A stretch of 64,000 nucleotides of DNA. Origin: Alphaproteobacteria bacterium (GTDB taxonomy: Bacteria; Pseudomonadota; Alphaproteobacteria; Bin95). Made by a program: the position numbers and the translations under genes. The notes beneath the pieces were generated by a model that was not told the origin of the DNA, ran no database searches, and saw only the letters and a program-made list of their open reading frames with translations. The stretch spans positions 640,001-704,000 of the forward strand of contig CBDBGH010000003.1 in the NCBI GenBank assembly GCA_965205265.1, given 5' to 3'. Numbering within the stretch: the stretch's first letter is position 1; each line of letters starts with the position of its first letter. Shown in pieces: positions 6,349 through 57,708 of this stretch.

Positions 6349-6472
6349 GGGCCCGCAGTATAGAGCGGAAACGCCCCCTATGCGCCGTAAATCGAGGCGG
6401 GAGGTTGGACCTTCCGTTGTGGCTTGGAATGAACAATTTCGGATATTTTTGAATTATGTTCCCTGTATGGGC

Positions 6473-6499
6473 TTGACATCTGGCGGATTGTGGTATGAT
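6473..6499 (+). promoter_or_regulatory. Sigma70-like promoter
   Basis: TTGACA-N15-TATGAT with a TGn extended -10, in an AT-rich patch. Confidence 0.55.
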
Positions 6500-6730
6500 G
6501 GTCCCCAGGGAAGCGGACTCCGGAGCCGCCTCCCCCGGGTGCCGCGCGGCCGAGCGGCGCCATTTCTGAAAACCCGTGAGAAGCCGACGGGAGACGTGCG
6601 CCCTGTGCCTCGCGCGCGCAATCAGGCGCGCAAACCGCGCCGCCGCGAAACGCGCGCCCGCGCCGACACAGGCGCCCGCGCAGGATACGCGCGGAAAAGG
6701 GACCCGCTCCCCGTCGGAGGAGGAGAGACG

Positions 6731-7318
6731 ATGACCGCAACTGACCCCCGCCCCGCACTGGCGGCGATGCTGGCCGAAAAGCTGGCCCCGGCCGCCGCAG
6801 CCCTTGCCGAAGCTTATGCCCAGGACATGGGCGCAGCGCCGCCGCCGGAGGACAACCGTGCCTCGGCCGAACGCCATCGCGCCGGACGCGCCGCGCTCTC
6901 CCATCTGCGCCAGATCCTCAATGTCCTCGACTGGGCCGCCGCCCGCATGCCCGAGCCGGAGCCGGCAGTCATCGAGGAACCGGCGGACGACTGGGTTCCG
7001 GAGCCGGAGCCCGAGACCGGCTATGACGGCAGCGAGGACGAATACCACTATTTCGACGAGGTCTGGGTCGGCAGCCAGCAGACGCCCGAGTTCCGGGCCT
7101 GGCATGCGGAGCAGGAGCGCCGCTTCGGGCCGCTGGTGCCGGACGAGGACAGTTACGACGGCAGCGAGGACTACTACAATTTCGGCGAGCGCCAGTATGT
7201 GGGCAAGCTGACCACGCCCGCGTTCTACGACTGGCTCGCCCGCCAGGAACGCCGCGAGGCCGCAGAACTCGCCGCAAGGGAGGCCGCAGAAGGAGGCGGG
7301 GGTACCGGCGGGTGGTAG
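6731..7318 (+). CDS. Hypothetical acidic protein (195 aa) with a tandem 44-aa repeat
   Basis: Strong GGAGGAGGAG RBS; GC3-rich codons; YDGSED...VG...TP.F..W.A.QERR occurs twice. Confidence 0.75.
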   Translation: MTATDPRPALAAMLAEKLAPAAAALAEAYAQDMGAAPPPEDNRASAERHRAGRAALSHLRQILNVLDWAAARMPEPEPAVIEEPADDWVPEPEPETGYDGSEDEYHYFDEVWVGSQQTPEFRAWHAEQERRFGPLVPDEDSYDGSEDYYNFGERQYVGKLTTPAFYDWLARQERREAAELAAREAAEGGGGTGGW

Positions 7319-7365
7319 AGCATGCTCCGCTCGGGCTGAAACGAATCCCTCCACAGAGCCCCCAT

Positions 7366-7470
7366 CGTCACCCCGGCCGGAGCGAAGCGGAGAGCCGGGG
7401 TCCAGACTGCCGGGGTCTTTACCGGATTGCGCCGGTCGTGCCGGGCTCCGGCTCGGGGGTCGGAGCGACA
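7366..7470. repeat. REP-like palindromic element
   Basis: cgtcaccccggccggagcgaagcggagagccggggtcca hairpin followed by a degenerate partner arm. Confidence 0.5.
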
Positions 7471-7747
7471 ATAGGGGCCGTCGCCATAGGTTCCGATCAA
7501 CGACCGTTGGTATCAAAGAGCGGACGGCTTCATGCCCAAATCGGCTACGGCATATGAACTCCGCGCATGCAGAACATGACATCGCATGACATTCCATGAC
7601 ACATCCCTGGAGTGGGCCCCTGGGGTCGGACAGTCCGGTTGAGGAGATTTGTCGGATGCGCAGGCGTCGGAAGGACTGCGGCCGCGGGGAAGCGCCGGGC
7701 GGTTCCCGGCTCCCGGCCCGGCGGGACCTGCCGCGCGTTTGCCGGGC

Positions 7748-25166: not shown

Positions 25167-25770
25167 GTGTCATGGGATGTCATGTTTTGTCATGTTTCCC
25201 ATGCATGCGATTTATGTTCCCATGCCAATCCCGGCATAATACCAACCGCGCCGGGCTGCGCCTCATGAGGAATGCCGCCGCCCCCGGGCCTCGTGCCGCG
25301 GGAGGGGGCCGGATCGACGCCAGGGCGCCGTCCGGAACGATGGGAGATGTTCGTCGGTTCCTACTTGCCGTTATTGGCGCGCGCCTCCGTTTCGAGTTAG
25401 GGTTCCGGGTATTCCGCCGGTGTTTGCCGTCTTCATGTTTCGGGCATGGCTCCCTGCTTCCCGCTCCATTGCCGTTCCCGTCTCCCCGCCGCTGGCCTGC
25501 CCGGGCAGCGGACCCTGATTCGCGCGTAATGTGCGCGGGCGCCCGCGCCCGCCAGCGCGCGTTTCGCGGCGGCGCGAATCGCGCGCCTGATTGCCCGCGC
25601 GCGCGAGGCCTGAATGCGGGCGCACGTCTCCCGTCCGTTCCAAAGGGGTTATTTTGCGCCGGCGCCGGCGCGGACGGCGAAGCGGTTTCCGGATGCCGCT
25701 TCTATCCTATACTATCACAGAATTTTCCATTGTCAAATCATATTGAGAAATATTACTAATTCAGTGAACA
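25167..25770 (-). repeat. Dispersed promoter-leader-cargo-CATGAC module, copy B
   Basis: TTGACA-N16-TAGTAT (25736-25709), leader 25635-25507, GGGAG+ATG at 25447, GTCATG at 25169/25179/25189. Confidence 0.75.
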
Positions 25771-25774
25771 AATC

Positions 25775-28396
25775 CTAGCCCAGCCGGGCGAGCGCTCCTT
25801 CGAGCGCTGCGCGCTGGCCGGCGAGCTCGTTGCGCTGCTCCCGCTGGTCCTCGACCACCTCGGCCGGGGCGCGGGTGAGGAACCGGTCATTGCCGAGCTT
25901 CTTGTCGATCCCCGAAATGCGGGCGTCGATCTGCGCCATTTCGCGGTCCAAACGCTCGCGTTCCTTGCCGAAGTCGATCACCTCTGCGAGTTTCAGCGCC
26001 ACCGTTGCGCCGGGCAGCGCCACCTCGACCGAGCCCTCCGGCGCGGCCCCCTCCGACAGGCTTTCCAGCCGCGCCAGCCTGAGTATCTGCGGCGCATTGC
26101 GCGCGGCGCGGTCGGCGCTCTCCCCGTCGGCGCCGACAAGCGCGGCGTCGATCCTGGCGCCCGCCGGGACATTGAGTTCCGACCGCACGCGGCGGATCTC
26201 CGAGATCAACTGGATGGTCCAGCCGATCTCGGCCGGCGGCTCGCCCGCGTCGTCATCGGGCCAGGCCGCGCCGATCAGCCCGCCTTCCACGAGGCCCAGC
26301 GCGTCGTTCAACTCCTCGGTCACGAAGGGCGTCAGCGGGTGCAGCATCCGCAGGACGCGGTCCAGCACCCAGGCGGCCGTCGCGCGGGTCTCGTCCGCCG
26401 CCCGCCCGCCCTCGGCGAAAACCGGCTTGGCGAACTCGATGAACCAGTCGCAGAACTCGCCCCAGACGAAGCGGTAAAGAACGTCCGCCACCTCGTTGAA
26501 GCGGTATGTGTCCATCGCCGCTTCCACCTGTCGGCGCGTCTCGACGGTCCGGGCGACGATCCAGCGGTTCAGCGTTTCCTCGACGGCGGCGGAATCGAAA
26601 CCCGGCCGGGGCGTGCAGCCGTTCATCTCGCAGAAGCGCGCGGCGTTCCAGAGCTTGGTGGTGAAGTTGCGGTAGCCCGCGACCCGGCTTTCGGAGAGCT
26701 TGATGTCGCGGCCGGGCGCGGCGAGCGCGGCCAGGGTGAAGCGCAGCGCGTCGGCCCCGTAGCTCGCGCACATGTCCAGCGGGTCGATGATATTGCCCTT
26801 GGACTTGGACATCTTGGCGCCGTGCTGGTCGCGCACGAGCGCATGGATATAGACGGTGCGGAAGGGCACTTCACCCATGAAATGCAGGCCCATCATCATC
26901 ATCCGGGCGACCCAGAAGAAGATGATGTCGAAGCCCGTCACCAGCACGTCGCCCGGATAGTAGCGGTCGAGCGCGGGCGTCCGCTCCGGCCAGCCGAGCG
27001 TCGAGAACGGCCAGAGCGCGGAAGAGAACCAGGTGTCGAGCACATCCGGGTCCTGCTGCAGTTCCACGCCCGGCCCGAAACGCGCTTCGGCCTCCGCCCT
27101 TGCCTCGGCCTCCGTTTCGGCGACGAAGACCGAATCCCCGGGGCCGTACCAAGCCGGAATCCGGTGCCCCCACCAGAGCTGCCGCGAGATGCACCAGGGC
27201 TGGATATTGCGCATCCACTCGAAATAGGTCTTGGCCCAGTTTTCCGGGACGAAGCGGGTGCGTCCGCTCTCGACCGCCTCGATCGCCGGTTTCGCCAGGG
27301 TCGCGGCGTCGGCATACCACTGCTCCGCCAGGTAGGGCTCGATGGGCACCCCGCCGCGGTCGCCATAGGGGACCGTGTGGCGATGGCGCTCGACGCGCTC
27401 CAGCGCTCCCGCCGCTTCAAGGTCGGCGACCACCCGCTCGCGCGCCGCGAACCGCTCCAGGCCGCGATAGGCCTCCGGCGCCGCGTCGTTCAGATGCGCC
27501 GTCCGGTCGAAGATGTTGACGACATCCAGCCCGTGCCGCCGCCCGACCTCGAAATCGTTGAAGTCGTGCGCCGGGGTGATCTTGACCGCGCCGGAGCCCT
27601 GCTTCGGGTCGGCATGGGCGTCGGCGACGATGGGGAGTCGCCGGTCCACCAGCGGCAGGATGCAATGGCGGCCGACCAGATGCCTGTAGCGCGGGTCGTC
27701 CGGATGGACCGCGACGCCCGTATCGCCCAGCATCGTCTCGGGCCGCGTCGTGGCGACGGTCAGGCTCTCGCCGTCCCCGCCTTCGACGGGATAGCGGATA
27801 TACCAGAGATGGCCGTCGGTCTCGGTCTGCTGCACCTCGAGGTCCGAGATCGCGGTCTCCAGCGCCGGGTCCCAGTTCACCAGCCGCTGGTCCTTGTAGA
27901 TCAGGCCCTCGCGGTATAGCTGCACGAAGACCCTGACGACCGCTTTCGACAGGCCCTCATCCATGGTGAAACGCTCGCGCGCCCAGTCGGCCGATGCGCC
28001 GAGCGAGCGAAGCTGGCGGGTGATCTGCCCACCCGACTCCGCCTTCCACTCCCAGACCCGGTCCAGGAACTTCTCGCGTCCGAGGTCGGTCCGCTTGAGT
28101 CCTTCCTCGTCGAGCTGGCGCTCCACCACCATCTGCGTCGCGATTCCGGCATGGTCGGTGCCGGGCTGCCAGAGCGCGTCCCTGTTCCTCATGCGGTGGT
28201 AGCGGATCAGGATGTCCTGCAGCGTGAAAGTCAGGCCGTGGCCCATATGCAGGCTGCCGGTGACATTCGGCGGCGGCATCATGATCGTGTAGGGCCGGGC
28301 GCCTTGCCTCACGCCCGCGGCAAAGGCGCCGGCGCGCTCCCAGGCGTCATAGCGCGGCGCTTCCACCGCGTCGGAACGGTAGGTCTTCTCCAGCAT
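25775..28396 (-). CDS. valS: Valine--tRNA ligase
   Basis: PPPNVTGSLHMGH, WCISRQLWWGH, KMSKS; C-terminal coiled coil. Confidence 0.98.
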   Translation of the reverse strand: MLEKTYRSDAVEAPRYDAWERAGAFAAGVRQGARPYTIMMPPPNVTGSLHMGHGLTFTLQDILIRYHRMRNRDALWQPGTDHAGIATQMVVERQLDEEGLKRTDLGREKFLDRVWEWKAESGGQITRQLRSLGASADWARERFTMDEGLSKAVVRVFVQLYREGLIYKDQRLVNWDPALETAISDLEVQQTETDGHLWYIRYPVEGGDGESLTVATTRPETMLGDTGVAVHPDDPRYRHLVGRHCILPLVDRRLPIVADAHADPKQGSGAVKITPAHDFNDFEVGRRHGLDVVNIFDRTAHLNDAAPEAYRGLERFAARERVVADLEAAGALERVERHRHTVPYGDRGGVPIEPYLAEQWYADAATLAKPAIEAVESGRTRFVPENWAKTYFEWMRNIQPWCISRQLWWGHRIPAWYGPGDSVFVAETEAEARAEAEARFGPGVELQQDPDVLDTWFSSALWPFSTLGWPERTPALDRYYPGDVLVTGFDIIFFWVARMMMMGLHFMGEVPFRTVYIHALVRDQHGAKMSKSKGNIIDPLDMCASYGADALRFTLAALAAPGRDIKLSESRVAGYRNFTTKLWNAARFCEMNGCTPRPGFDSAAVEETLNRWIVARTVETRRQVEAAMDTYRFNEVADVLYRFVWGEFCDWFIEFAKPVFAEGGRAADETRATAAWVLDRVLRMLHPLTPFVTEELNDALGLVEGGLIGAAWPDDDAGEPPAEIGWTIQLISEIRRVRSELNVPAGARIDAALVGADGESADRAARNAPQILRLARLESLSEGAAPEGSVEVALPGATVALKLAEVIDFGKERERLDREMAQIDARISGIDKKLGNDRFLTRAPAEVVEDQREQRNELAGQRAALEGALARLG

Positions 28397-41228: not shown

Positions 41229-42850
41229 CACACACGCCTCCAGTCGAAGCCCGGCCTTGTGCCGGAGCCGAAACGCTTGAGCGCCCCGTCCTCGCCGACG
41301 GCGTTGGGGCGGCTGAAAATCCAGTTCTGCCAGGCGGTAAGCCGGCCGAATATCTTGGTGGCGAGGGTTTCGGCGCCGCCGAAGCGCAGGCTCGCCTCCA
41401 TGCCCGTCAGCGCATCCGGCGAGAGCGCCGCGCGCTCCTCCAGCGCAATGCGCACCTCGTCCTCCCAGTCGAGTTCGTCGGGAGCGAAGGTTACGAGTCC
41501 CGCGGCGAGCGCTTCTTCCGGGCCGAAACTGTCGGTGTCGAATTCGGGAATTGCACCGGAAAAGCGGCAGTCGAGCCGGGTGCGCCCGTTCGCCGTTTCG
41601 AGGCTGCCCCGGTTCAGCGCGCCGAGTGCGATCCGGGGCGCGGCCTCCGGCTCGTCGAGCGGCTGGAACATGAAGCTGCGGTCCGCGGCGAGCGCCAGTT
41701 CCAGCAGGGGGCCGACAAAGCAGGAGCCGGGTTCGATGAGCGCGATCAGAGAGCGGGAGGTCACGTCCAGCCGGGCGAGCGCACGCCGCCACCAGGCGAC
41801 TGTCTCCCGCAGGAACCGGTCGGTTTCGGCACCTTCGCTCAGCAGGGCGTCCACGGCCAGCAGCGCTTGCCCGTCGCCCTCGGTCTTCAACACCCAGGCG
41901 CCGATCTGCTCGTGGTTCGTTCGCAACATCAGCACCGCGTCTTCGAGCTCGCGCGCGGCGGCGAGCGGCCACCAGGCGGCGGAGCGCTCCATCGCCACCG
42001 GCCCCGAGGGGCCGGAGACCGTGATCTCCGCGAGCCGCCGCGTGTCCTCGATTCGCACGCGCACATTCGGGTAGCGGTAGCCGTCCGGTTCGACGCGCCG
42101 TTCCAGCGGCGTGAGCGGCACCGGGTCGCCCGCGGGCAGGTCCGGCCGGCCGGCGAGTTCCTCGGCGCGCTCTCGCACGGCGGTTTCGAAGCGCTGCGGC
42201 GGCGCGGTGCGGTCCACAAGGCCCCATTCGAGCGCCCGGCGGCCGCGTGCGCCGTCGGGGTCGGTGCAGAACACGTCGGCGAGGTCGCGGCGGACGCGGC
42301 GCTTGTCGGTGATGCGCGTCAGGCCGCCCGTGCCCGGCAGCACGCCCAGCAGCGGCACTTCCGGCAGGCTGACGGCGCTCGACCGGTCTTCGATGAGCCA
42401 GATCTCGTCGCAAGCCAGCGCCAGCTCATAGCCGCCGCCCGCCGCCGTGCCGTTGCAGGCCGCGATGAAGGCGATGCCCGAGCGCCGGCTCGCATCCTCC
42501 ATGAAGTTGCGGGTCTCGTTGGTGAAGCGGCAGAAATTGACCTTCGCCGCATGGCTCGATCCGGCGAGCATGTAGATATTGGCCCCGGCGCAGAACATGC
42601 GGTCGAGGGCGCTGGTCACGATGACCGCGCGCACCTCAGGATGCTCGAAGCGCAGCCGGTTGAGCGCGTCGTTGAGCTCGATATCGACGCCGAGATCGTA
42701 GGAGTTGCGCTTCAGCGCGTAGCCGGGACGGAGCCCGCCATCCTCGTCCACTTCGAGCGTAAGCGTCGCGACCGCTCCGTCCACCGCCAGCGACCAGTGC
42801 CGGTAGCTCTCCGGTTCGCGGTCGTAGGTGATGAGCATATTGTCGGTCAT
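41228..42850 (-). CDS. boxC: 2,3-epoxybenzoyl-CoA dihydrolase BoxC
   Basis: NSYDLGVDIEL, FCAGANIYML, TNETRN, FGRLTAWQNWIF.RPNAVGE. Confidence 0.96.
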   Translation of the reverse strand: MTDNMLITYDREPESYRHWSLAVDGAVATLTLEVDEDGGLRPGYALKRNSYDLGVDIELNDALNRLRFEHPEVRAVIVTSALDRMFCAGANIYMLAGSSHAAKVNFCRFTNETRNFMEDASRRSGIAFIAACNGTAAGGGYELALACDEIWLIEDRSSAVSLPEVPLLGVLPGTGGLTRITDKRRVRRDLADVFCTDPDGARGRRALEWGLVDRTAPPQRFETAVRERAEELAGRPDLPAGDPVPLTPLERRVEPDGYRYPNVRVRIEDTRRLAEITVSGPSGPVAMERSAAWWPLAAARELEDAVLMLRTNHEQIGAWVLKTEGDGQALLAVDALLSEGAETDRFLRETVAWWRRALARLDVTSRSLIALIEPGSCFVGPLLELALAADRSFMFQPLDEPEAAPRIALGALNRGSLETANGRTRLDCRFSGAIPEFDTDSFGPEEALAAGLVTFAPDELDWEDEVRIALEERAALSPDALTGMEASLRFGGAETLATKIFGRLTAWQNWIFSRPNAVGEDGALKRFGSGTRPGFDWRRV

Positions 42851-42853
42851 TTA

Positions 42854-42884
42854 TGCATTATATTTCCTGTTCAGCGGGAGTCAA
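42854..42884 (-). promoter_or_regulatory. boxC promoter with putative BoxR operator
   Basis: TTGACT-N16-TATAAT; contains ACAGGAAATATAATGCA, identical to 43747-43763. Confidence 0.7.
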
Positions 42885-43748
42885 GCTGCAGCCGCCCTGC
42901 CTTGTTGCAAGCAGCCGGCGGGCAGTTCGCTCCAATTCGTCGAGGCAGTCCTCGAGTGGACGGCCCGACGTATCGAGCCGGGCGTCGGCGCGGGCATAAT
43001 CGGGGCTGCGGGCGGCAAGGATTGCGCGGAGGTCGGCCATCGCTTCCGGATTGTCGGCCATCGGCCGGCGATCGCCCTGGGCGGCAACGCGCCGCATGTG
43101 CTCCTCGGGCGAGGCCGTCACCCAGACCGTATGGGTGCGGGTCAGCAACAGATCGAGGCTGGCGGCCTCCGCGACGATGCCGCCGGGTGTGGCGATGACC
43201 CCGCGCCCGCCCTTCTCCGTAATGCGGCTGAGCGCACGGTATTCCTGCCGCCTTAGCCCCGGCTGGCCCGACAAGGCCAGGATTTCCGCAATGTTGGCGC
43301 CGTATTCCCGCTCGATCTCTCGGGTGAGTTCGACGAAGGGCCAGTCGAGACGTTCCGCCAGAAGGTGCCCGAGGGTCGTCTTGCCGGCGCCGCGCAAGCC
43401 TATAAGCGCGATCCGTTCCGCCTTGTCCGCAGCCCGTCCGAAATGGCGTTCCAGCAGCGCATGGGCGGCGGCCCGGTCTTCCGGGCCGAGCCGCTCCAGC
43501 AGGGCGGCCGCCGCGTCGTGGGCGGGGGACGAAAACAGTGTTGCGAGGTCCACGCCGATGGCTGCCGCGATGCGGGCCAGCACGCCGATTGAGGGGTTCG
43601 CCCTTCCGCTCTCCAGTTCGGCGAGATAGCGTTCCGACGCCGCGCTGTCACGGGCCAGGATGCGCCGGCTCATGCCGCGAGCGGCCCGGAGAGTCCGCAG
43701 CCTTGCGCCGAGCGGCGCAGCAATGTTTTCCTTGGCGGCGTCGGTCAC
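42858..43748 (-). CDS. boxR: BoxR/BzdR regulator (XRE HTH + shikimate-kinase-like domain)
   Basis: ASERYLAELESGRANPS HTH; LIGLRGAGKTTLG; EEHMRRVAAQGDRRPM; GTG start uncertain. Confidence 0.9.
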   Translation of the reverse strand: MTDAAKENIAAPLGARLRTLRAARGMSRRILARDSAASERYLAELESGRANPSIGVLARIAAAIGVDLATLFSSPAHDAAAALLERLGPEDRAAAHALLERHFGRAADKAERIALIGLRGAGKTTLGHLLAERLDWPFVELTREIEREYGANIAEILALSGQPGLRRQEYRALSRITEKGGRGVIATPGGIVAEAASLDLLLTRTHTVWVTASPEEHMRRVAAQGDRRPMADNPEAMADLRAILAARSPDYARADARLDTSGRPLEDCLDELERTARRLLATRQGGCSLTPAEQEI

Positions 43749-48237: not shown

Positions 48238-49308
48238 TCATGCGGCCGGGCCGCCCGCTTCCCGGACGCGGGGAAGGCCGCGCCCGAGGCCGGTGAACAG
48301 AATCTTCAGCGCGGCGTCGGAGCGCGCCAGCGCGCTGGTGGTCACGACCACGGCCTTTACGGCGCGCCGCGAAATCTTGACTTCCTGGCCGCTCCCGAAG
48401 GCGGGCGTCGTGTATGTGCGACGCAGGGTGAGCACCGCCATGCCGAGCGCCCACAGGCAGAACCGGCGGATGCCCGTCTCGTGCGCCGGGATGAGCAGGA
48501 TGTAACGAAGCGCATTGGCGAGATGCTGGCCGACGATCGCGATGAGCCGGTTCAGCCCCTCGACAAAGCCGGGATCGGCCTGGCCCGGCGCAAGCGAGCG
48601 GAGGTCGAAGCCGGCCGCTAGGAAGACGCTGCGCGGCAGCCAGCAGGCGCCGCGGCTCCGGTCTTCCCAGATGTCCTTCAGGATATTGGTCATCTGGAGG
48701 CCCTGCCCGTAAGAGGCCGAGAGCGCGAAGAGCTCCTCGCGCCGCGCGTCGATTTCCTCGGAATAGTCGCAGAAGAGTTCCGTCAGCATTTCGCCGACGA
48801 CGCCGGCGACATGGTAGCAGTAGCGGTCGAGGTGCTGGAGGTCGTTCAGCCCTTCGAGGCTGGTGCCTTCCTGAAATTCCGTCATGCCGTGCGTCATGAT
48901 CCTCACGCAGCGCAACATTGCCTGCCGTTGCGCGGCGGAGAAGCCGTCCGTGATCCGCATGACGCGGGGAACGTTGGCGATCAGGTCGCGCTCGGCTTCG
49001 GTCGCCGAGCGGGTCAGCAGGACGATGAGGTCGTCCGAGAAGGCTCTTGCGTCCTCGCTGCCTTCGACGACGCCGACCCAGCGTTCGGAAAACTCGCGTT
49101 TCCGGGCTGCGGAGAGGGCGGCTTCGTCCTCGATGGTGTCCGCGATCCGGCAGAGCAGATAGGCATTGCCGACCGCGTCGCGGAGCGGGGCGGGCAGCTG
49201 GGGAATGGTAAGCGCGAATGTGCGGGAAACGCCCTGCAGGATCTCCGCCTGGTAAGCGAGGTCGCGTTCAAGGGCGGTTTCGCCAGTTGCCGTTTTCAGC
49301 TTCGACAT
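48238..49308 (-). CDS. Squalene/phytoene synthase family protein (single-enzyme SQS type)
   Basis: [46 protein letters not shown]. Confidence 0.88.
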
Positions 49309-49610
49309 CCCGCTTTCAGCCGGGCTCCGCCACAAAAGGCTGCCGGTTCCATGGTTTCCGACCGGACAGTCCAAGTCAAGCAACGGTTCGCCCGCCGCCG
49401 GACGGCGAAGGGCGGCGCCGGCCCGCCGTGAGGACTCCTCGCGGGGTGTCATGGGATGTCATGTTCTGCATGCGCATGGCGCATGTCCTGTGGCCGTTTG
49501 GGGCATGGGTCCGCTCCTCTTTCTTCCTCTCCCGCAAGCGCTACCGGATTCACACATCCCCGCGTGGTGGCGTTGCCCCGCATATCCTAACCGTCGCCCC
49601 GGTTCTCGCA

Positions 49611-49797
49611 GCACCCCCTTCGTCATACCCGGAACAAGTCCGGGTATGACGAAGGGGGTGCCCTGAACCTGTCGAAGGGGGGCGTTCGGGCATGACGGAC
49701 AGGAGGCCGACCGGGGACGCCGCGCGCTCCCGAAATCCCGTTCGGCTCCCCCTCAATGTCTGAACCGGACACCAGTGGAACAAGTCCGGGTATGGCG
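49611..49797. repeat. REP-like palindrome cluster
   Basis: Perfect 23-bp stem 49611-49633/49639-49661; CCCTGAACCTGTCGAAGGG; inverted homology to 47882-48056. Confidence 0.8.
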
Positions 49798-49886
49798 GGG
49801 AGAGGGCATGATGGGGAAGGGTCGGGCCACCGGTTACGGACCGAAACGAGATGTGTGCATGCGGTAGCCCGCAAGCGGGAGGGGAG

Positions 49887-50260
49887 AGTTCGAGCGCTCT
49901 GCCTGGCTCCTCGAAGCCGTATCCGTCAGCATCCTGCATGTCGTTCCTCCATCCTGTTTCGTTCCACTCCGTTCCGTTCCTCCCGCCGCCCGGCTTGCCC
50001 AGGTAGCGGGACCCTGATTCGCGCGTATCCTGCGCGCGCCTGTGCCGGCGCGGGCGCGTGTTTCGCCGCGGCGCGGTTCGCGCGCCTGATTGCCCGCGCG
50101 CGAGGCAAGCGCAGGACGCACTTCACATGTCGGCTGAATCGGGGTCGTTCCGCACCGGGCCGGCACGGGAGGAGAAGCGGCCTCGCGAACGCCGCCCCCA
50201 TTCTCAAGTCCTAATATATTACAGAATTCGCAGAAATCAACCTTTATTCTCGAATTAATT
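49887..50260. repeat. 374-bp direct repeat, left copy (long target duplication of IS1634)
   Basis: Identical by eye to 54974-55347 (offset 5087); abuts the left TIR. Confidence 0.92.
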
Positions 50261-51862
50261 CCTGACTTCGACGGTTGGGCTGACTTCTGACCGATCTCGC
50301 GTCTGGAGTTTTCAGTAAAGCCAATGAGTTGGCAGTTGCGGTGCGGTCAAGCTGCGTTGTAGTGCCTAGTAAATCTTTGAGACTGTCAATGCCTCCGCCA
50401 CGCGCTACACTCCCCCCATGTTCGTGCGCATCAAGACCTCCCCCAACAGCCCGCGACGCTCGGTCCAGATCGTCGAGGCCGTGCGCGACGGCGGCAAGGT
50501 CCGACAGCGCATCGTCCGCCATGTCGGCGTGGCCATGGACGAGGACGAGCTCGAGCGCCTGAGGCAGCTCGGCGAGTACGTCAAGGCGAAGCTGGAGGAC
50601 GAGCGTCAGCCGGCATTGTTTGCGCCCGAGAAGATCGCTGAGCAGGCGATCCGTGTCGGCCGCCGGGGGGACGGCAAGGAGGAACTCCCGGTCGACCTCA
50701 AGCAGCTTGAAGAGGAGCAGCGCCTGATCACAGGCATCCACGAGGTCTATGGCGAGATCTACCGGCTGCTGGGCCTCGACGCGCTGCTGCCGCGCTCGCG
50801 CTACCGGGCCTCCCATGACGCGCTGTTCCATGTGGTGATGGCGCGGGTAGCCAACCCCGACAGCAAGCGGGGCAGCGTGCGCCGGCTCGAGGAGGACTTC
50901 GGCGTGAGTCTTCCGCTCGAGAAGGTCTACCGGATGATGGATCAGCTCGACGCGACGGTGATCGAGCGACTGCGCACGCGCGTCGGCGAGGCGAGCCGGT
51001 CGCTGCTGCCGGAGCCGGTCGCGATCCTCTTCTTCGATTGCACCACGCTCTACTTCGAGACGGCCGCCGAGGACGAGCTTCGCCAGCACGGCTTCAGCAA
51101 GGACGGCAAACACAAGGACTCGCAGGTTCTGCTGGCGCTGATGGTGACGCGCGAAGGGCTGCCGATCAGCTACGAGGTCTTCCCCGGCGCCACCTACGAG
51201 GGACACAGCATGGTCCCGGTCCTGCAGGACATGCAGCGCCGCCACCAGGTGGAGCGCACGGTATGCGTGGCCGACCGGGGCATGCTGAGCGCCGACAACC
51301 TCGACGCCATGGACGCCATCGGCGGCGAGTATGTCGTCGGCGCGCGGCTGCGCAAGCTGCCGCTCGCGCTGCTGGGGCAGGTTCTCGACCCCGGGACCTA
51401 TGCCCCGCTGGAGGGCTCACAGGACCGCCGGGTCGGCGAGTGGGAGTACAAGGGCCGTCGCCTGATCGTCGTCTTCTGCCCCCAGCGCGCACGCAAGGAC
51501 GCGCACGAGCGCCGCCATCAGGTGGAACGCCTGCTCGACAGGCTGGCCCGCAGCGACAATCCCAGGGAACTGCTCTCCAATCACGGGGCGAAGCGCTTCA
51601 TTATAGCGCGACAATCTGGGTGAGAGCCGCGCGTCAATCAGGATGAGATTCCCCGGCGGCATCGGCGAGTTGATGATTGTCGCGCGGGGCGCGGATTGCA
51701 AGCGGTTTCGGATTTTGATTGTCGCGGCGCGACAAACAAGGTTTTCGGAGAGCGTTTTGATTGTCGCGGGGGGGCCGTCGGGTCGGAGAAGAGACGGCCC
51801 GCGGAGGCGATTCCCGCGGGCCGTGAGTGTTGTGGCCGCTGGGCCGATCTGGCGGCAGCGGT

Positions 51863-54210
<2,348 letters not shown>

Positions 54211-54973
54211 CTACTCGGAAAAACGTCACCGTTCGCCCAGCCGACCGACCCCGCCAGAAGGTCCAGGAAAAATTTTTTGAGGCGGCGGCCCGGAACTCCG
54301 GTCGGGCTACGCCCTCCCTCCGTTCCGGGCCGCCGCCTTCCCCCGTCTCATCCTGATTGTCGCCAGCGTCTCAAGCTGATTGTCGCGCCGCACTTCATCG
54401 CCGTCGAGGGCGACGCACGGCTCACGGTGAACCCGGAGAAGATCGCCGAGGCCGCACGATGGGACGGGCTCACCGGCGTCATCACCAATCTGCGCGACGC
54501 GCGCGTCACCGAAGTGATGGCTCACTACCAGGGGCTCTGGCAGGTCGAGGAGAGCTTCCGGATCACCAAACACGACCTGAAGATACGTCCCATCTGGCAC
54601 TGGAACCCGGACCGGATCCGCGCTCACATCGCCATCGCCTTCCTGGCCTTCGCCTGCGTTCGACACCTTGCGTACCGCGTCGCCATCCAGAAGCGGCGGA
54701 TGTCCCCGGAGGTCATCCGCTCCGCCCTCGTCCACCGCCAGTGCTCCCTGCTGCGCTGTCGGCAATCGGGCAACCGCTACGTCATCCCCTCGAAGCCGAC
54801 ACCGGCGGCGGAGCAGATTTACGCAACCATGGGGCTGCCCCTGACGATCACCCCGTATCAACTCGCCTGACCGTCGACGAAGCACGGCTCGAAGAAATGC
54901 CGGATGTAGTGCCTAGCCGAAATGAGAACCAGGCAATATCAACTACTTATGCGAATCAACCGTCGAAGTCAGG

Positions 54974-55347
54974 AGTTCGAGCGCTCTGCCTGGCTCCTCG
55001 AAGCCGTATCCGTCAGCATCCTGCATGTCGTTCCTCCATCCTGTTTCGTTCCACTCCGTTCCGTTCCTCCCGCCGCCCGGCTTGCCCAGGTAGCGGGACC
55101 CTGATTCGCGCGTATCCTGCGCGCGCCTGTGCCGGCGCGGGCGCGTGTTTCGCCGCGGCGCGGTTCGCGCGCCTGATTGCCCGCGCGCGAGGCAAGCGCA
55201 GGACGCACTTCACATGTCGGCTGAATCGGGGTCGTTCCGCACCGGGCCGGCACGGGAGGAGAAGCGGCCTCGCGAACGCCGCCCCCATTCTCAAGTCCTA
55301 ATATATTACAGAATTCGCAGAAATCAACCTTTATTCTCGAATTAATT
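54974..55347. repeat. 374-bp direct repeat, right copy
   Basis: Matches 49887-50260; abuts the right TIR. Confidence 0.92.
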
Positions 55348-55413
55348 CTGGAAATATGAACAAAAAGATTTTCCGGCGAGCCCGGCCGGGACATGCCGGG
55401 AAACGCCGATGAC

Positions 55414-57708
55414 TTAAGGCTTCCTGCGGTCGATCGCCATCAACAGGGGCGGGAGGAGCAGGAAATCGGCGAGGAGTGCGAAGCCGAGCGTGATCGCCAC
55501 CATAAGGCCGAGAGACCAGCTTACCTCAAACCCGGACGATGCAAACACCAGGAATCCGAGCGACAGGACTATCGTAGTGGTCCACAACGCCCGGCCGACA
55601 GTACGAAACGCGCTGCGAACGGCTCCAGCGGGATCGAGCCCCTCGCGGCGGGCCCTCAGATAGGCGGTCAGGAAGTGAATCGTATCGTCCACGACGATCC
55701 CGAAGGCGATAGCCGTCATCACCGACCCCGCAAGACCGACCCGCCCCACGAGATAGCCCCAGAGGCCGATAGTCATGGCAGCCGGGATGAAGTTGGGCAC
55801 CAGGCTGACAAGGCCCAGGCGGATACTCCTGAAGATTCCGATCAATATCAGGGATATCAGCGCCATGGCGACGATTGTCCCGGTCAGCATGCTCCTGATA
55901 TTTCGCTGCGAAAGATGCGCGGAAACGATGGTGAACCCCGATGCTTCCGTCAACAGTTCGGGCGCATTTGCCCGGAACCATTCCTGGGCCCGCGCATCGA
56001 GTTCGCGTTGCTGCCGCGAGGTCAGGCTTCGCGTGACGACGCTCAGCCGCGTTGCGGACTTGGCGACGTCGATGCGGTCGTTGAGGTCGCTGCCGAAGGG
56101 AAGCGAAAGCTCGTAAAGCAAGAGGTACTGGGCCGCCAGGGCCCCGTCCTCAGGCAGGCGATGGAAGGCCGGGTCGTCGCCGTGCATGTTCCTGTTGAGG
56201 CGCTTCATGATGTCCGTGAACGCTTGGACATGGATCACTTCCGGCTGCGCCCGGCCCCACTCCGCAAAGGCGTCCACGGCCCGCAGATATCCGGGGTCGG
56301 TGATGCCGTTGTCGCGCCCCGAAGCGAGCGAATATTCGAGCGTTTCCATACCCGTCAGATTTTCGATGACGAAATCCGTGTCGCGCCGGAACTCGTAGCG
56401 CTCGTCGAAATATCGCGGCCAGTTGTCTGTCAGATCGATGTGCGGGATGCCGGATACCAGTGCCGCGGCGAGGAGCGGCATGGAAATGAGCAGCGCCCTC
56501 CGGCGCTCCACGACGAAATGGCCGAACCGCTCGAAAAAACTGGGCCGCCCGCTCGGCGCGGGAGGCGCGCGCAGCGGCAGGATGGAAAGCAGGGCCGGCA
56601 GGACGGTAACCGAGTAGAGGAAGGCGCACAGCACTCCGAAAGCGACCAGGTTGCCCAGCACGTGGAAAGGGGGCGAATCCGATGCATTCAGGCTGAGGAA
56701 CCCGATTGCCGTGGTCGCGGTGGTAAGGAAAACGGGCCAGATATTGTCGCGGAGCGCCTCGGCTACGGCTTCATTCCTGCCGAGGCCGCGCCCCAATCGC
56801 TCCAGAACGCTGGCAACGATATGGATCGAATGCGCCACGGCGACGGTCATTACGATGATCGGGATGCCGGAATTGGCGGGGTTGAGCACCGTTCCGACCC
56901 AGCCGGCGAAGCCCATCGTCGTGTTGACGGTGAATATCAGCGTGATGACGAGGGCGAGGGCGCCCGACAGAGAGCGAAGCAGGAGCCCGATTGCAACCGC
57001 AATTATCGCGAACACCAGAGGCGTGAGGGTGCGCACGTCGTCCTGGGTCGTGTCGGCGAAGACCTGATGCATGACGACGTCGCCGGTCAAGTGATAGTCG
57101 AGGTTCGGATGGCCGGCGCGGGCCTGCTCCAAAAGGGTGCGGAGGAAATTGTTGATCTCGGCGACCGAAGCATCCCGGTCGTCGGACAAGGAGAAGTTTA
57201 TCGTCAGCCCCGCCACGCGCCCGTCATGGGAGACCAGGCGGCCGGCAAGGTCGATTGCGTTCAGTGCGATCTCTTCGACCCGTACAAGCCCTTCGTCGGT
57301 GAGCGCGCCTGCGTTCCTGACAAGCGGGCCGACGATCAGATCGTCCTCGGATGCCTCGCTGTGGGTATAGTTGGTCAGGGAATCGACCCGGGTTGAGAAC
57401 GGCGCCTGCCAGGCCGCCTCGGTCAGTTCCTCGACCGCAGCCAGCGTCTCGCGGGTAAACGCCGAGCCCTGACGCGGGGCGATTGCGATCAGCGCGACAT
57501 TGGATGCGGAATAAGTCTCCTCCAGCGCATCGAGCGCCGCAAGCTGCGGATTGTCCTCGTCGAAAAGGCTGCGGTAGTCGTTGGTCACGCCGATGAACGG
57601 GGCGCCTGCCGTCGCCGCCAGCATGACGAGCCCTGCAAGCGCAACGACCGCCCATCGGTGTCGAAGGACGAATTCGATAAAGCGGTCGAGAGGCGAAGGC
57701 GCCGTCAC
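55414..57708 (-). CDS. MMPL/RND-superfamily lipid transporter
   Basis: 764 aa, two repeats; TVAVAHSIH, TTAIGFLSL, PNFIP, GIVVDDTIHF. Confidence 0.9.
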   Translation of the reverse strand: MTAPSPLDRFIEFVLRHRWAVVALAGLVMLAATAGAPFIGVTNDYRSLFDEDNPQLAALDALEETYSASNVALIAIAPRQGSAFTRETLAAVEELTEAAWQAPFSTRVDSLTNYTHSEASEDDLIVGPLVRNAGALTDEGLVRVEEIALNAIDLAGRLVSHDGRVAGLTINFSLSDDRDASVAEINNFLRTLLEQARAGHPNLDYHLTGDVVMHQVFADTTQDDVRTLTPLVFAIIAVAIGLLLRSLSGALALVITLIFTVNTTMGFAGWVGTVLNPANSGIPIIVMTVAVAHSIHIVASVLERLGRGLGRNEAVAEALRDNIWPVFLTTATTAIGFLSLNASDSPPFHVLGNLVAFGVLCAFLYSVTVLPALLSILPLRAPPAPSGRPSFFERFGHFVVERRRALLISMPLLAAALVSGIPHIDLTDNWPRYFDERYEFRRDTDFVIENLTGMETLEYSLASGRDNGITDPGYLRAVDAFAEWGRAQPEVIHVQAFTDIMKRLNRNMHGDDPAFHRLPEDGALAAQYLLLYELSLPFGSDLNDRIDVAKSATRLSVVTRSLTSRQQRELDARAQEWFRANAPELLTEASGFTIVSAHLSQRNIRSMLTGTIVAMALISLILIGIFRSIRLGLVSLVPNFIPAAMTIGLWGYLVGRVGLAGSVMTAIAFGIVVDDTIHFLTAYLRARREGLDPAGAVRSAFRTVGRALWTTTIVLSLGFLVFASSGFEVSWSLGLMVAITLGFALLADFLLLPPLLMAIDRRKP

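Follow-up and report, generated by a model that had tools for sequence, protein, structure and literature searches.

The closest described relative of the element treated here is the small terminase G1P of the Bacillus phages SF6 and SPP1, together with its packaging site pac (PDB IDs 2cmp, 4zc3, and 3zqq; Pfam ID PF03592). The element is a family of cassettes, three copies of which (A, B, and C) lie in a 64,000-nucleotide stretch of an Alphaproteobacteria bacterium (GenBank assembly GCA_965205265.1, contig CBDBGH010000003.1, positions 640,001 to 704,000), hereafter called the window. Full-length cassettes carry a gene whose product has the homologous N-terminal helix-turn-helix (HTH) of G1P followed by long helices, and short repeated boxes on one helical face stand in or next to the gene, as in pac. 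Unlike G1P and pac, the cassettes stand alone without a large-terminase gene (terL) and occur outside a phage genome in about 70 dispersed copies, most of which do not have the small-terminase-like gene. Each is equipped with a strong promoter and a conserved leader of 230 nt, and the protein that the full-length cassettes specify has no predicted beta-barrel.

Further likenesses are found among repeats and transfer systems. Miniature inverted-repeat transposable elements (MITEs) also have many short gene-less copies sharing both ends with few gene-bearing ones, are intergenic, vary in presence, and act as substrates of rearrangement; unlike MITEs, the cassettes have asymmetric ends without terminal inverted repeats or a consistent target duplication, their long form has no transposase, and their promoter function is conserved. 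The "putative mobile promoters" and Correia-type elements likewise place a sigma-70-type promoter on a dispersed repeat, sometimes aimed at a neighbour as in copy C, whereas the cassettes are much larger and modular, with their own leader, cargo genes, and an array of protein sites, and 35 of 60 face a gene on the opposite strand. Gene transfer agents (GTAs), lateral transduction, and TerS-carrying satellites suggest that host-resident recognition could steer foreign-made capsids to the chromosome, and a TerL cluster is present in this genome. GTAs are not known to package from dispersed recognition cassettes, and satellites are islands of several kilobases with integrase and replication genes, in contrast to about 70 cassettes of 0.6 to 1.3 kb. 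Integron gene cassettes appear to be set apart by their anatomy, the copies here being dispersed rather than arrayed and having their own promoter. Literature searches of listings and abstracts found no description of such cassettes.

An earlier note on this DNA had described a four-part module at the three loci, composed of a promoter, a leader, a ribosome-binding site with variable cargo, and a phased CATGAC end, and had considered a non-autonomous mobile element or a phage-derived unit. The phage-derived unit agrees with the small-terminase-like gene of the full-length members. We tentatively propose, with a probability of roughly 0.42, that a phage packaging-recognition module gave rise to a genus-wide family of about 70 self-contained cassettes, A, B, and C among them, and that the arrays of these cassettes would be docking sites for a TerS-like protein supplied in trans.

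The cassette family and its small-terminase-like gene

When the leaders, promoters, and ends of the three copies are used as BLAST queries against the genome, the leader is matched about 77 times, always on the 5.46-Mb chromosome contig, and no cassette is found on the two small contigs. A 21-nt motif taken from the leader's 3' end, with at most 4 mismatches, yields 70 sites, 62 of which are followed by a co-oriented tandem CATGAC pair 29 to 1091 bp downstream. For two other sites the pair lies at 3.8 to 4.5 kb, one of these carrying open reading frames (ORFs) of insertion sequence (IS) type, one site is the duplicated arm of copy C, and five have no CATGAC pair within 6 kb. Co-oriented pairing of leader and CATGAC end within about 2 kb had been set beforehand as a test of the module, and it holds for these 62 of 70 sites. 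The pattern CATGAC-N4-CATGAC is found 136 times in the genome versus about 2 expected from the frequency of the single hexamer, and 0 times as the reversed control pattern; 33 arrays have at least three CATGAC units. A further 25 array clusters have no leader, several of them being part of 5'-truncated cassettes that lie in tandem 200 to 340 bp behind a complete cassette. The recurrence of the unit is far above chance, and A, B, and C are genuine members of a chromosome-scattered family of about 70 promoter-driven cassettes, in line with the expectation of many copies per genome that the earlier note drew from three copies in 64 kb.

The genome sample comprises 17 genomes of the genus (this genome, G000, and 16 others) and 20 genomes of two sister genera, the three genera being the whole order in the sample. 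The family is spread across the one genus, with 0 to 379 arrays among congeners, and the sister genera are without it (array counts of 0 to 2 in the 20 genomes). Sequencing runs from sponge and coral-reef metagenomes, and one from a sponge metatranscriptome, also contain the stretch or relatives.

A catalogue of the forward ORFs that lie between leader and array in 61 copies sorts the interiors into a small number of recurring types. The first is short, with a first frame beginning MPKT (copy B); the second is short, begins MQDA, and contains palindromes resembling repetitive extragenic palindromes (REP-like; copy C); the third has a gene of 195 to 206 aa (copy A and about a dozen near-identical copies); and the fourth, the full-length cassette, has a terS-like gene of about 300 to 330 aa. 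Seven terS-like copies in this genome are intact, without stops, and are 94 to 100% identical to each other, and matches 65 to 83% identical to them are present in 12 of the 16 other genomes of the genus.

Residues 25 to 100 of the TerS-like protein match the Pfam family Terminase_2 (PF03592) with an E value of 4e-13, and the protein also matches the PHROG small-terminase (terS) families. A profile built from 13 homologues finds the DNA-binding domain of SF6 G1P and a full-length SPP1-like small terminase in the PDB at E values of about 1e-6 (PDB IDs 2cmp, 4zc3, and 3zqp). The AlphaFold2 model has a predicted local distance difference test score (pLDDT) of 66 overall and above 80 for residues 11 to 100. 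In the Foldseek search the six best rows are all small terminases, with 4zc3 and 2cmp reaching a template modelling (TM) score of 0.82 and a root mean square deviation of 0.8 to 1.3 Å over 50 residues; half of the query is disordered, which keeps every row short of an E value of 0.001. The model has a long helix (residues 52 to 90) and a second helix (93 to 106), and the full-length SPP1-like, PaP3, and NV1 TerS structures are found at ranks 3 to 11 with E values above 0.1. Both the profile matches and the model indicate that the N-terminus is a small-terminase DNA-binding domain of the SF6/SPP1 G1P type, followed by a putative helical region that resembles an oligomerisation region.

The gene is physically tied to the array. 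The terS-like ORF runs into the CATGAC array and has its TGA stop inside it, the protein ending in HD(x)(S/T), and this ending is found in 14 of 24 homologous ORFs from related metagenome-assembled genomes (MAGs), including marine and sponge "Rhodospirillaceae" MAGs with 45 to 55% identity. A CATGAC array follows the gene in 17 of the 24 loci (11 of 11 close and 6 of 13 distant ones), and every one of the 11 close loci has a 14-nt leader-core motif no more than 200 bp upstream of the gene, a motif that was found once among the 13 distant ones, 517 bp upstream. Conservation of the array together with the DNA-binding domain extends well past the reach of the leader. The numbers per genome follow the same line, with 145 to 379 arrays in all 12 other genomes of the genus that have a terS-like gene and 0, 1, 2, and 38 in the four that do not; as the genomes are related, the counts form a consistent pattern without the force of a statistical test. 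Two genomes, G009 and G014, have many arrays and only fragments of the terS-like gene, mostly at contig ends, which is most simply read as an assembly gap.

We infer a packaging role, binding to the array, and action in trans, the binding and the start of packaging from the array phasing and the linkage of gene and array. The complete form consists of promoter, 230-nt leader, Shine-Dalgarno sequence, gene of about 300 aa, and phased CATGAC array. Each cassette would be transcribed from its own strong promoter, and the TerS-like protein would be made from the few gene-bearing copies (seven intact ones here). Its oligomer would dock in trans on the same-face CATGAC repeats of all cassettes, as G1P does on the pac boxes, and about 70 places on the chromosome would thereby be marked for a transaction on the DNA. 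Most probably this would be the initiation of packaging by a terminase and a capsid supplied in trans, from a resident podovirus-type particle cluster or from an infecting phage. The copies in the window would be derivatives, A with a second, unrelated cargo gene and B and C with only promoter, leader, and docking end.

Several observations weigh against this packaging-recognition origin. None of the seven full-length terS-like copies lies in the window, where A, B, and C are all without the gene. The C-terminal beta-barrel with which G1P binds TerL is not predicted for the TerS-like protein, nor are any strands, and the C-terminal half of the protein is variable and mostly below a pLDDT of 50. 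There is no terL beside any cassette examined (the locus of a full-length copy, and flanks), and a viral contig collection contains only four weak, HTH-only relatives. G008, which is one complete contig, has its 38 arrays and leader matches and no terS-like match. The particle-cluster TerL described below is found in 15 of the 17 genomes of the genus, including G003, G008, and G013, which are without the terS-like gene, and was not found in G002, which has cassettes. Finally, a pac model leaves the conservation of promoter and leader in gene-less copies and the second cargo family unexplained.

The resident cluster is a podovirus-type set of structural genes at G000:C3:3817700-3828000, with portal, major capsid, tail-tube A and B, TerL, and a holin-like gene. 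Its TerL (phrog_38, E value 1e-71) is the only one found and lies about 2 Mb from the examined full-length copy. A strict co-occurrence of cassettes and particle cluster is ruled out by G002, G003, G008, and G013, so that a functional tie between the two is possible and not indicated by co-occurrence. Beside the cluster is a LexA-like repressor with a GTTC-N7-GTTC box; control of the cassettes by LexA was also considered and rejected, as no such box is present in the cassette promoters. A more specific form of the packaging proposal, in which the cassettes are about 70 dedicated packaging start sites and a TerS-like protein from master copies loads the terminase of this LexA-controlled cluster or of a helper phage, seems distinctly unlikely to us. 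If it were true, the whole chromosome would be packaged from defined points by a programmed, site-initiated gene-transfer device, unlike the known GTAs with their random packaging, and the gene-less copies would be pac-only stations.

About 70 dispersed and phased sites for a single HTH protein also resemble the site sets of chromosome organisers, so that the TerS-like protein could have been domesticated by the host without a packaging role, as a nucleoid or chromosome organiser or as a decoy against phage terminases. The long retention of cassettes at orthologous sites and their absence from the two small contigs would fit such a function, whereas the genome-wide copies follow no clear rule of replichore, orientation, or position, with no clear link to origin or terminus. 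The copy number is very variable, and the absence of the cassettes from three congeners and both sister genera indicates that they are dispensable. We regard host domestication as highly improbable.

If the arrays do dock a dispersed TerS-like protein, the cassettes would represent an undescribed way for phage packaging-recognition parts to persist and multiply in a chromosome, with a bearing on gene transfer in sponge- and reef-associated Alphaproteobacteria.

Copies A, B, and C in the window

Direct reading of the three loci and their alignment bear out the four-part order and the polarity that had been described, each unit beginning with an AT-rich patch that contains a sigma-70-type promoter. 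Their features are as follows.

6428..6499, + strand: upstream patch and promoter of copy A, read directly (-35 TTGACA at 6473-6478, 15-nt spacer, TG at 6491-6492, -10 TATGAT at 6494-6499)
6506..6730, + strand: leader of copy A, from alignments of 27, 68, and 43 copies (hairpins at about 6510-6532 and about 6537-6562, then the GC-rich core at 6586-6708)
6731..7318, + strand: cargo gene of copy A, 195 aa, a conserved family, with the Shine-Dalgarno sequence GGAGGAGG upstream
7319..7530, + strand: spacer of copy A with a REP-like GC-rich hairpin at about 7363-7408, read directly
7531..7601, + strand: 3' block of copy A and three CATGAC units (7575-7580, 7585-7590, 7595-7600)
25709..25780, - strand: upstream patch and promoter of copy B (-35 TTGACA at 25736-25731, 16 nt, -10 TAGTAT at 25714-25709 with TG before it)
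25480..25702, - strand: leader of copy B, from alignments with other copies
25238..25479, - strand: interior of copy B, short "MPKT-like" type, no conserved reading frame, the frames differing between copies of the type
25168..25237, - strand: 3' block of copy B and three CATGAC units (25194-25189, 25184-25179, 25174-25169)
49982..50261, - strand: promoter and leader of copy C, one arm of a duplication (-35 TTGATT at 50240-50235, 16 nt, -10 TATATT at 50218-50213), 100% identical to 55069-55348
55069..55348, - strand: second duplication arm of copy C (promoter and leader), joined to the original upstream flank after an MMPL-family gene
49508..49981, - strand: interior of copy C, short "MQDA" type with long REP-like palindromes, from direct reading and the ORF listing
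49447..49507, - strand: 3' block of copy C and two CATGAC units (49463-49458, 49453-49448), abutting a squalene/phytoene-synthase-family gene

The CATGAC units have an exact spacing of 10 bp in A (three units), B (three), and C (two), and a conserved 45-nt block, absent from the earlier note's description, precedes each array. The promoter region of copy A is 85 to 95% identical in 14 other A-type copies. For copy B, the promoter matches the consensus at 10 of 12 positions, a score for which shuffled sequence would give 0.2 sites, and the patch begins directly after the stop codon of the valS-like gene (25775-28396). REP-like GC-rich palindromes are present in the interiors of A (7363-7408) and C (49630-49810), and similar hairpins occur in the interiors or flanks of many other copies. 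The neighbours of copy C are an MMPL-family transporter gene that matches a sterol-sensing domain and the squalene/phytoene-synthase-family gene (window positions 55414-57708 and 48238-49452), and the promoter of C is directed into the latter, with which it is co-oriented.

The ATG codons at 6731, 25447, and 49939 had been thought to open the cargo of the three copies. This is upheld for 6731, which starts the conserved 195-aa gene; those at 25447 and 49939 start short frames that are not kept between copies. Because the short-form frames are not conserved or are interrupted between copies, they are treated as probably non-coding, and no conserved gene is present in copies B and C. A 15-aa frame ending at the TGA of the first CATGAC was considered as coding sequence and rejected, as it is interrupted in some copies and has a stop or no start in two.

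The cargo protein of copy A has homologues in 132 clusters, of 190 to 215 aa and down to about 50% identity, among which no Pfam domain and no informative name is found. Its AlphaFold2 model (pLDDT 77) has two long N-terminal helices and two beta-hairpin-helix repeats; a 45-residue beta-hairpin-helix unit is internally duplicated, and the family is multicopy. The Foldseek search of the PDB gives no fold match at E values up to 0.001, and PHROGs and the ESM Atlas return nothing usable. A kinship with the TerS-like protein was rejected, there being no similarity between the two. In relatives, the homologues of the cargo gene end inside the array, with C-termini such as HDKT and HDIP, and in copy A the REP-like insertion intervenes. 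Since the same gene in relatives runs straight into the CATGAC array, the spacer of copy A looks like a later insertion between cargo gene and 3' block. The cargo of copy A is a real gene, whose product is without an assigned function. Two conserved proteins, and a GC-rich leader core of 100 nt that hardly varies and has no assigned function, come with the family.

Promoter, leader, and the transcript

A TTGACA-N15-18-TATAAT promoter with at least 9 of 12 matching positions is present in 42 of 68 distinct copies versus 13 of 1000 random 200-nt windows, and with at least 10 of 12 in 27 of 68 versus 2 of 1000. The -10 hexamer is TG-extended in 27 of the 42 matching promoters. In the 42 anchored copies, the AT-rich zone (58 to 70% AT versus 32% in the genome) ends about 50 bp upstream of the -35. 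Because the hexamers are kept while spacer and upstream sequence diverge, the promoters appear to be maintained by selection, unlike decaying repeats. Copies that are not of A type have a recurrent TTTGTTC about 37 bp upstream of the -35 and AATA(A/T)TTC about 14 nt later; the TTTGTTC motif marks a sharp GC-to-AT transition, where it could serve as an operator or form the unit's left boundary.

The leader had been described as a homologous sequence of about 125 nt. The homology is real, and that sequence is merely the core of a conserved leader of about 230 nt, as seen in the alignments of 27, 68, and 43 copies. Within it, a core of about 100 nt is nearly invariant in primary sequence over 43 copies from several genomes, with many invariant columns, and contains overlapping GC palindromes around three AATCAG-like motifs. 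The two 5' hairpins H1 and H2 have 85.9% of their cells paired versus 32 to 52% in slid controls and 29 double-change cells versus 14.7 in shuffles, a number reached by 0 of 500 shuffles, the structure being drawn from one sequence of the alignment. A stabilising pair of 5' stem-loops is therefore likely from the alignment, and the core could equally be a DNA or an RNA recognition sequence. Candidate compensatory changes in the core that were picked by eye were rejected as register shifts or subfamily markers, and the leader was rejected as coding sequence, since its frames are not kept between copies.

The presence of promoter and leader in every copy, the near-invariance of the core, and the continued pairing of the 5' hairpins with different sequences raise the question of whether the transcript itself is the product. 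The cassettes would then yield multicopy leader RNAs with a regulatory or sponge function, or would act as "mobile promoters," with the terS-like gene as mere cargo and the CATGAC block as an RNA-level or termination element. The position of copy C next to its co-oriented synthase-family gene would suit this, as would the 25 of 60 copies in which the next downstream gene is co-oriented. In the other 35, by contrast, the downstream gene is on the opposite strand, and 24 of these copies sit between convergent genes. The full count for the 60 copies is 24 with the upstream gene on the same and the downstream gene on the opposite strand, 16 with both on the same strand, 11 with both on the opposite strand, and 9 with the upstream gene opposite and the downstream gene on the same strand. 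RNAalifold on 43 leaders finds only 11 pairs in the core with a covariation term of -0.21, so that a large conserved RNA fold of the leader is not supported. The full unit of copy B folds no better than its shuffles (z score -0.93) and contains no terminator-like site. At gathering score, Rfam gives 0 matches in the 64-kb window, consistent with the earlier note, which did not recognise the module as a named family. The conservation of the array with the DNA-binding domain, far past the range of the leader, also speaks against the transcript as the product, and we consider a product at the RNA level unlikely. The sponge metatranscriptome contigs span the leader and 3' block and do not span 25720-25965; being contigs only, they are uninformative on transcription, start site, or absence.

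Presence, recombination, and mobility

Cassettes are present at some sites in one species and absent from the orthologous sites in another, and this presence/absence is real. Site B, with valS on one side and a convergent FemAB-like gene on the other, is empty in 7 related genomes, in which the flanks are adjacent within 27 bp. Two genomes have unrelated 0.9-kb inserts there, the nearest relative G014 has a B-type cassette, and the site in G015 contains a B-like leader within an insert of 2.8 kb. The A-type copy found at 3.309 Mb is missing from G014 and occurs in G007 with identical outer junctions; a 7-bp direct repeat flanks these junctions, and the insert includes about 85 bp and 50 bp of additional DNA beyond the part recognised as cassette. 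Cassettes of other types, with other junctions, adjoin that right flank in G009 and G006. Neither G014 nor G007 has the copy that lies at 4.186 Mb, the site being occupied there by about 75 bp of unrelated sequence. Target duplication is not seen at B, C, or the 4.186-Mb copy, the 7-bp repeat occurring in one of three filled/empty pairs, and the comparisons of filled and empty orthologous sites reveal no fixed termini. Terminal inverted repeats are absent, an AT-rich promoter end facing a CATGAC array end, and the sole symmetry is a weak TGTTCA/TGACA resemblance, with the left end often near TTTGTTC and the right end at CATGACA. The interiors of 61 copies contain no transposase, integrase, or HUH or reverse transcriptase gene, transposases being found only in secondary IS insertions. 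The observation that no transposase lies in or beside the module therefore stands, and copies with a recombinase, HUH nuclease, or reverse transcriptase as cargo, which it had been suggested to look for, do not appear among the 61.

These comparisons bear on the idea of a new selfish mobile element, for which the TerS-like protein would be the element's own end-binding factor, catalysis would come from a host or unlinked enzyme, and A, B, and C would be non-autonomous, MITE-like copies. The filled and empty sites, one pair of them with the 7-bp direct repeat at both junctions, are what such an element would leave, and the range from 0 to 379 arrays among congeners, the 5'-truncated copies in tandem behind complete ones, and the weak TGT...ACA end symmetry (TTTGTTC left, CATGACA right) point the same way. 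Gene copies that are 94 to 100% identical within the genome and 65 to 83% between species fit recent bursts or conversion, and the gene-less G008 has the fewest arrays, 38. Against it stand the missing catalytic genes, the junctions that vary between insertions, the extra 85 and 50 bp, the "empty" site with unrelated sequence, and the lack of a target duplication at B and C. Several cassettes are orthologous across species and long retained, and promoter function is conserved in diverged copies, unlike in decaying MITEs. For the non-autonomous mobile element of the earlier note, the filled and empty orthologous sites are thus in favour, while fixed termini, a consistent target duplication, and a catalytic protein are lacking, leaving it unproven. 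We consider a selfish element doubtful, and it is compatible with the packaging-recognition origin that we prefer.

Orthologous cassettes in G000 and G007 have promoter and leader in common and differ in interior type. The switch lies where the leader ends, which shows that interiors are exchanged between copies by recombination at this point. This recombination between copies accounts for variable cargo between constant ends, and the suggestion that the module captures small ORFs is not borne out, the interiors being a few recurring types swapped by recombination rather than captured host ORFs. Copy A is located at a synteny breakpoint, with its left and right flanks mapping to different places or replicons in relatives; G012 and G016 have cassettes at the locus that matches the left flank, G005 and G014 at the one that matches the right flank. 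The comparison suggests that cassettes serve as breakpoints for chromosome rearrangement. Whatever their origin, about 70 strong promoters and recombination-prone repeats would shape transcription and synteny, with A marking a rearrangement breakpoint.

The start of the chromosome contig is repeated far away, G000:C3:330-483 being equal to 4632897-4633050 and 42722-43014 to 5413714-5414006. These repeats, 4.6 to 5.4 Mb apart and with identical cassette copies, reflect either the duplication of a large segment or an artefact of the assembly. The contamination rating of the genome is 7.28%, and its cumulative GC skew does not close.

The upstream flank of copy C had been noted as displaced to about 55348, and the displacement is explained by an IS composite with a 280-bp duplication.

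50262..55068, no strand assigned: IS composite of 4807 bp inside copy C, flanked by the perfect 280-bp duplication 49982-50261 = 55069-55348

The duplication, which gives the window a fourth promoter-plus-leader copy, is the target duplication made by the outer IS element. The transposase gene of this element is in two parts (50418-51623 and 54277-54870; DDE_Tnp_1, E value 2e-9), split by an IS21-type element with istB at 51863-52702 (IstB_IS21, E value 5e-65). A 499-aa ORF beside istB (52699-54198) is read as istA by its position; neither this ORF nor 54277-54870 matches a Pfam family at E values up to 1e-5. The outer element may be IS1634-like, an IS group that makes long target duplications. 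Related IS-type ORFs, in a frame antisense to istB, are found inside another cassette at G000:C3:2.709-2.713 Mb.

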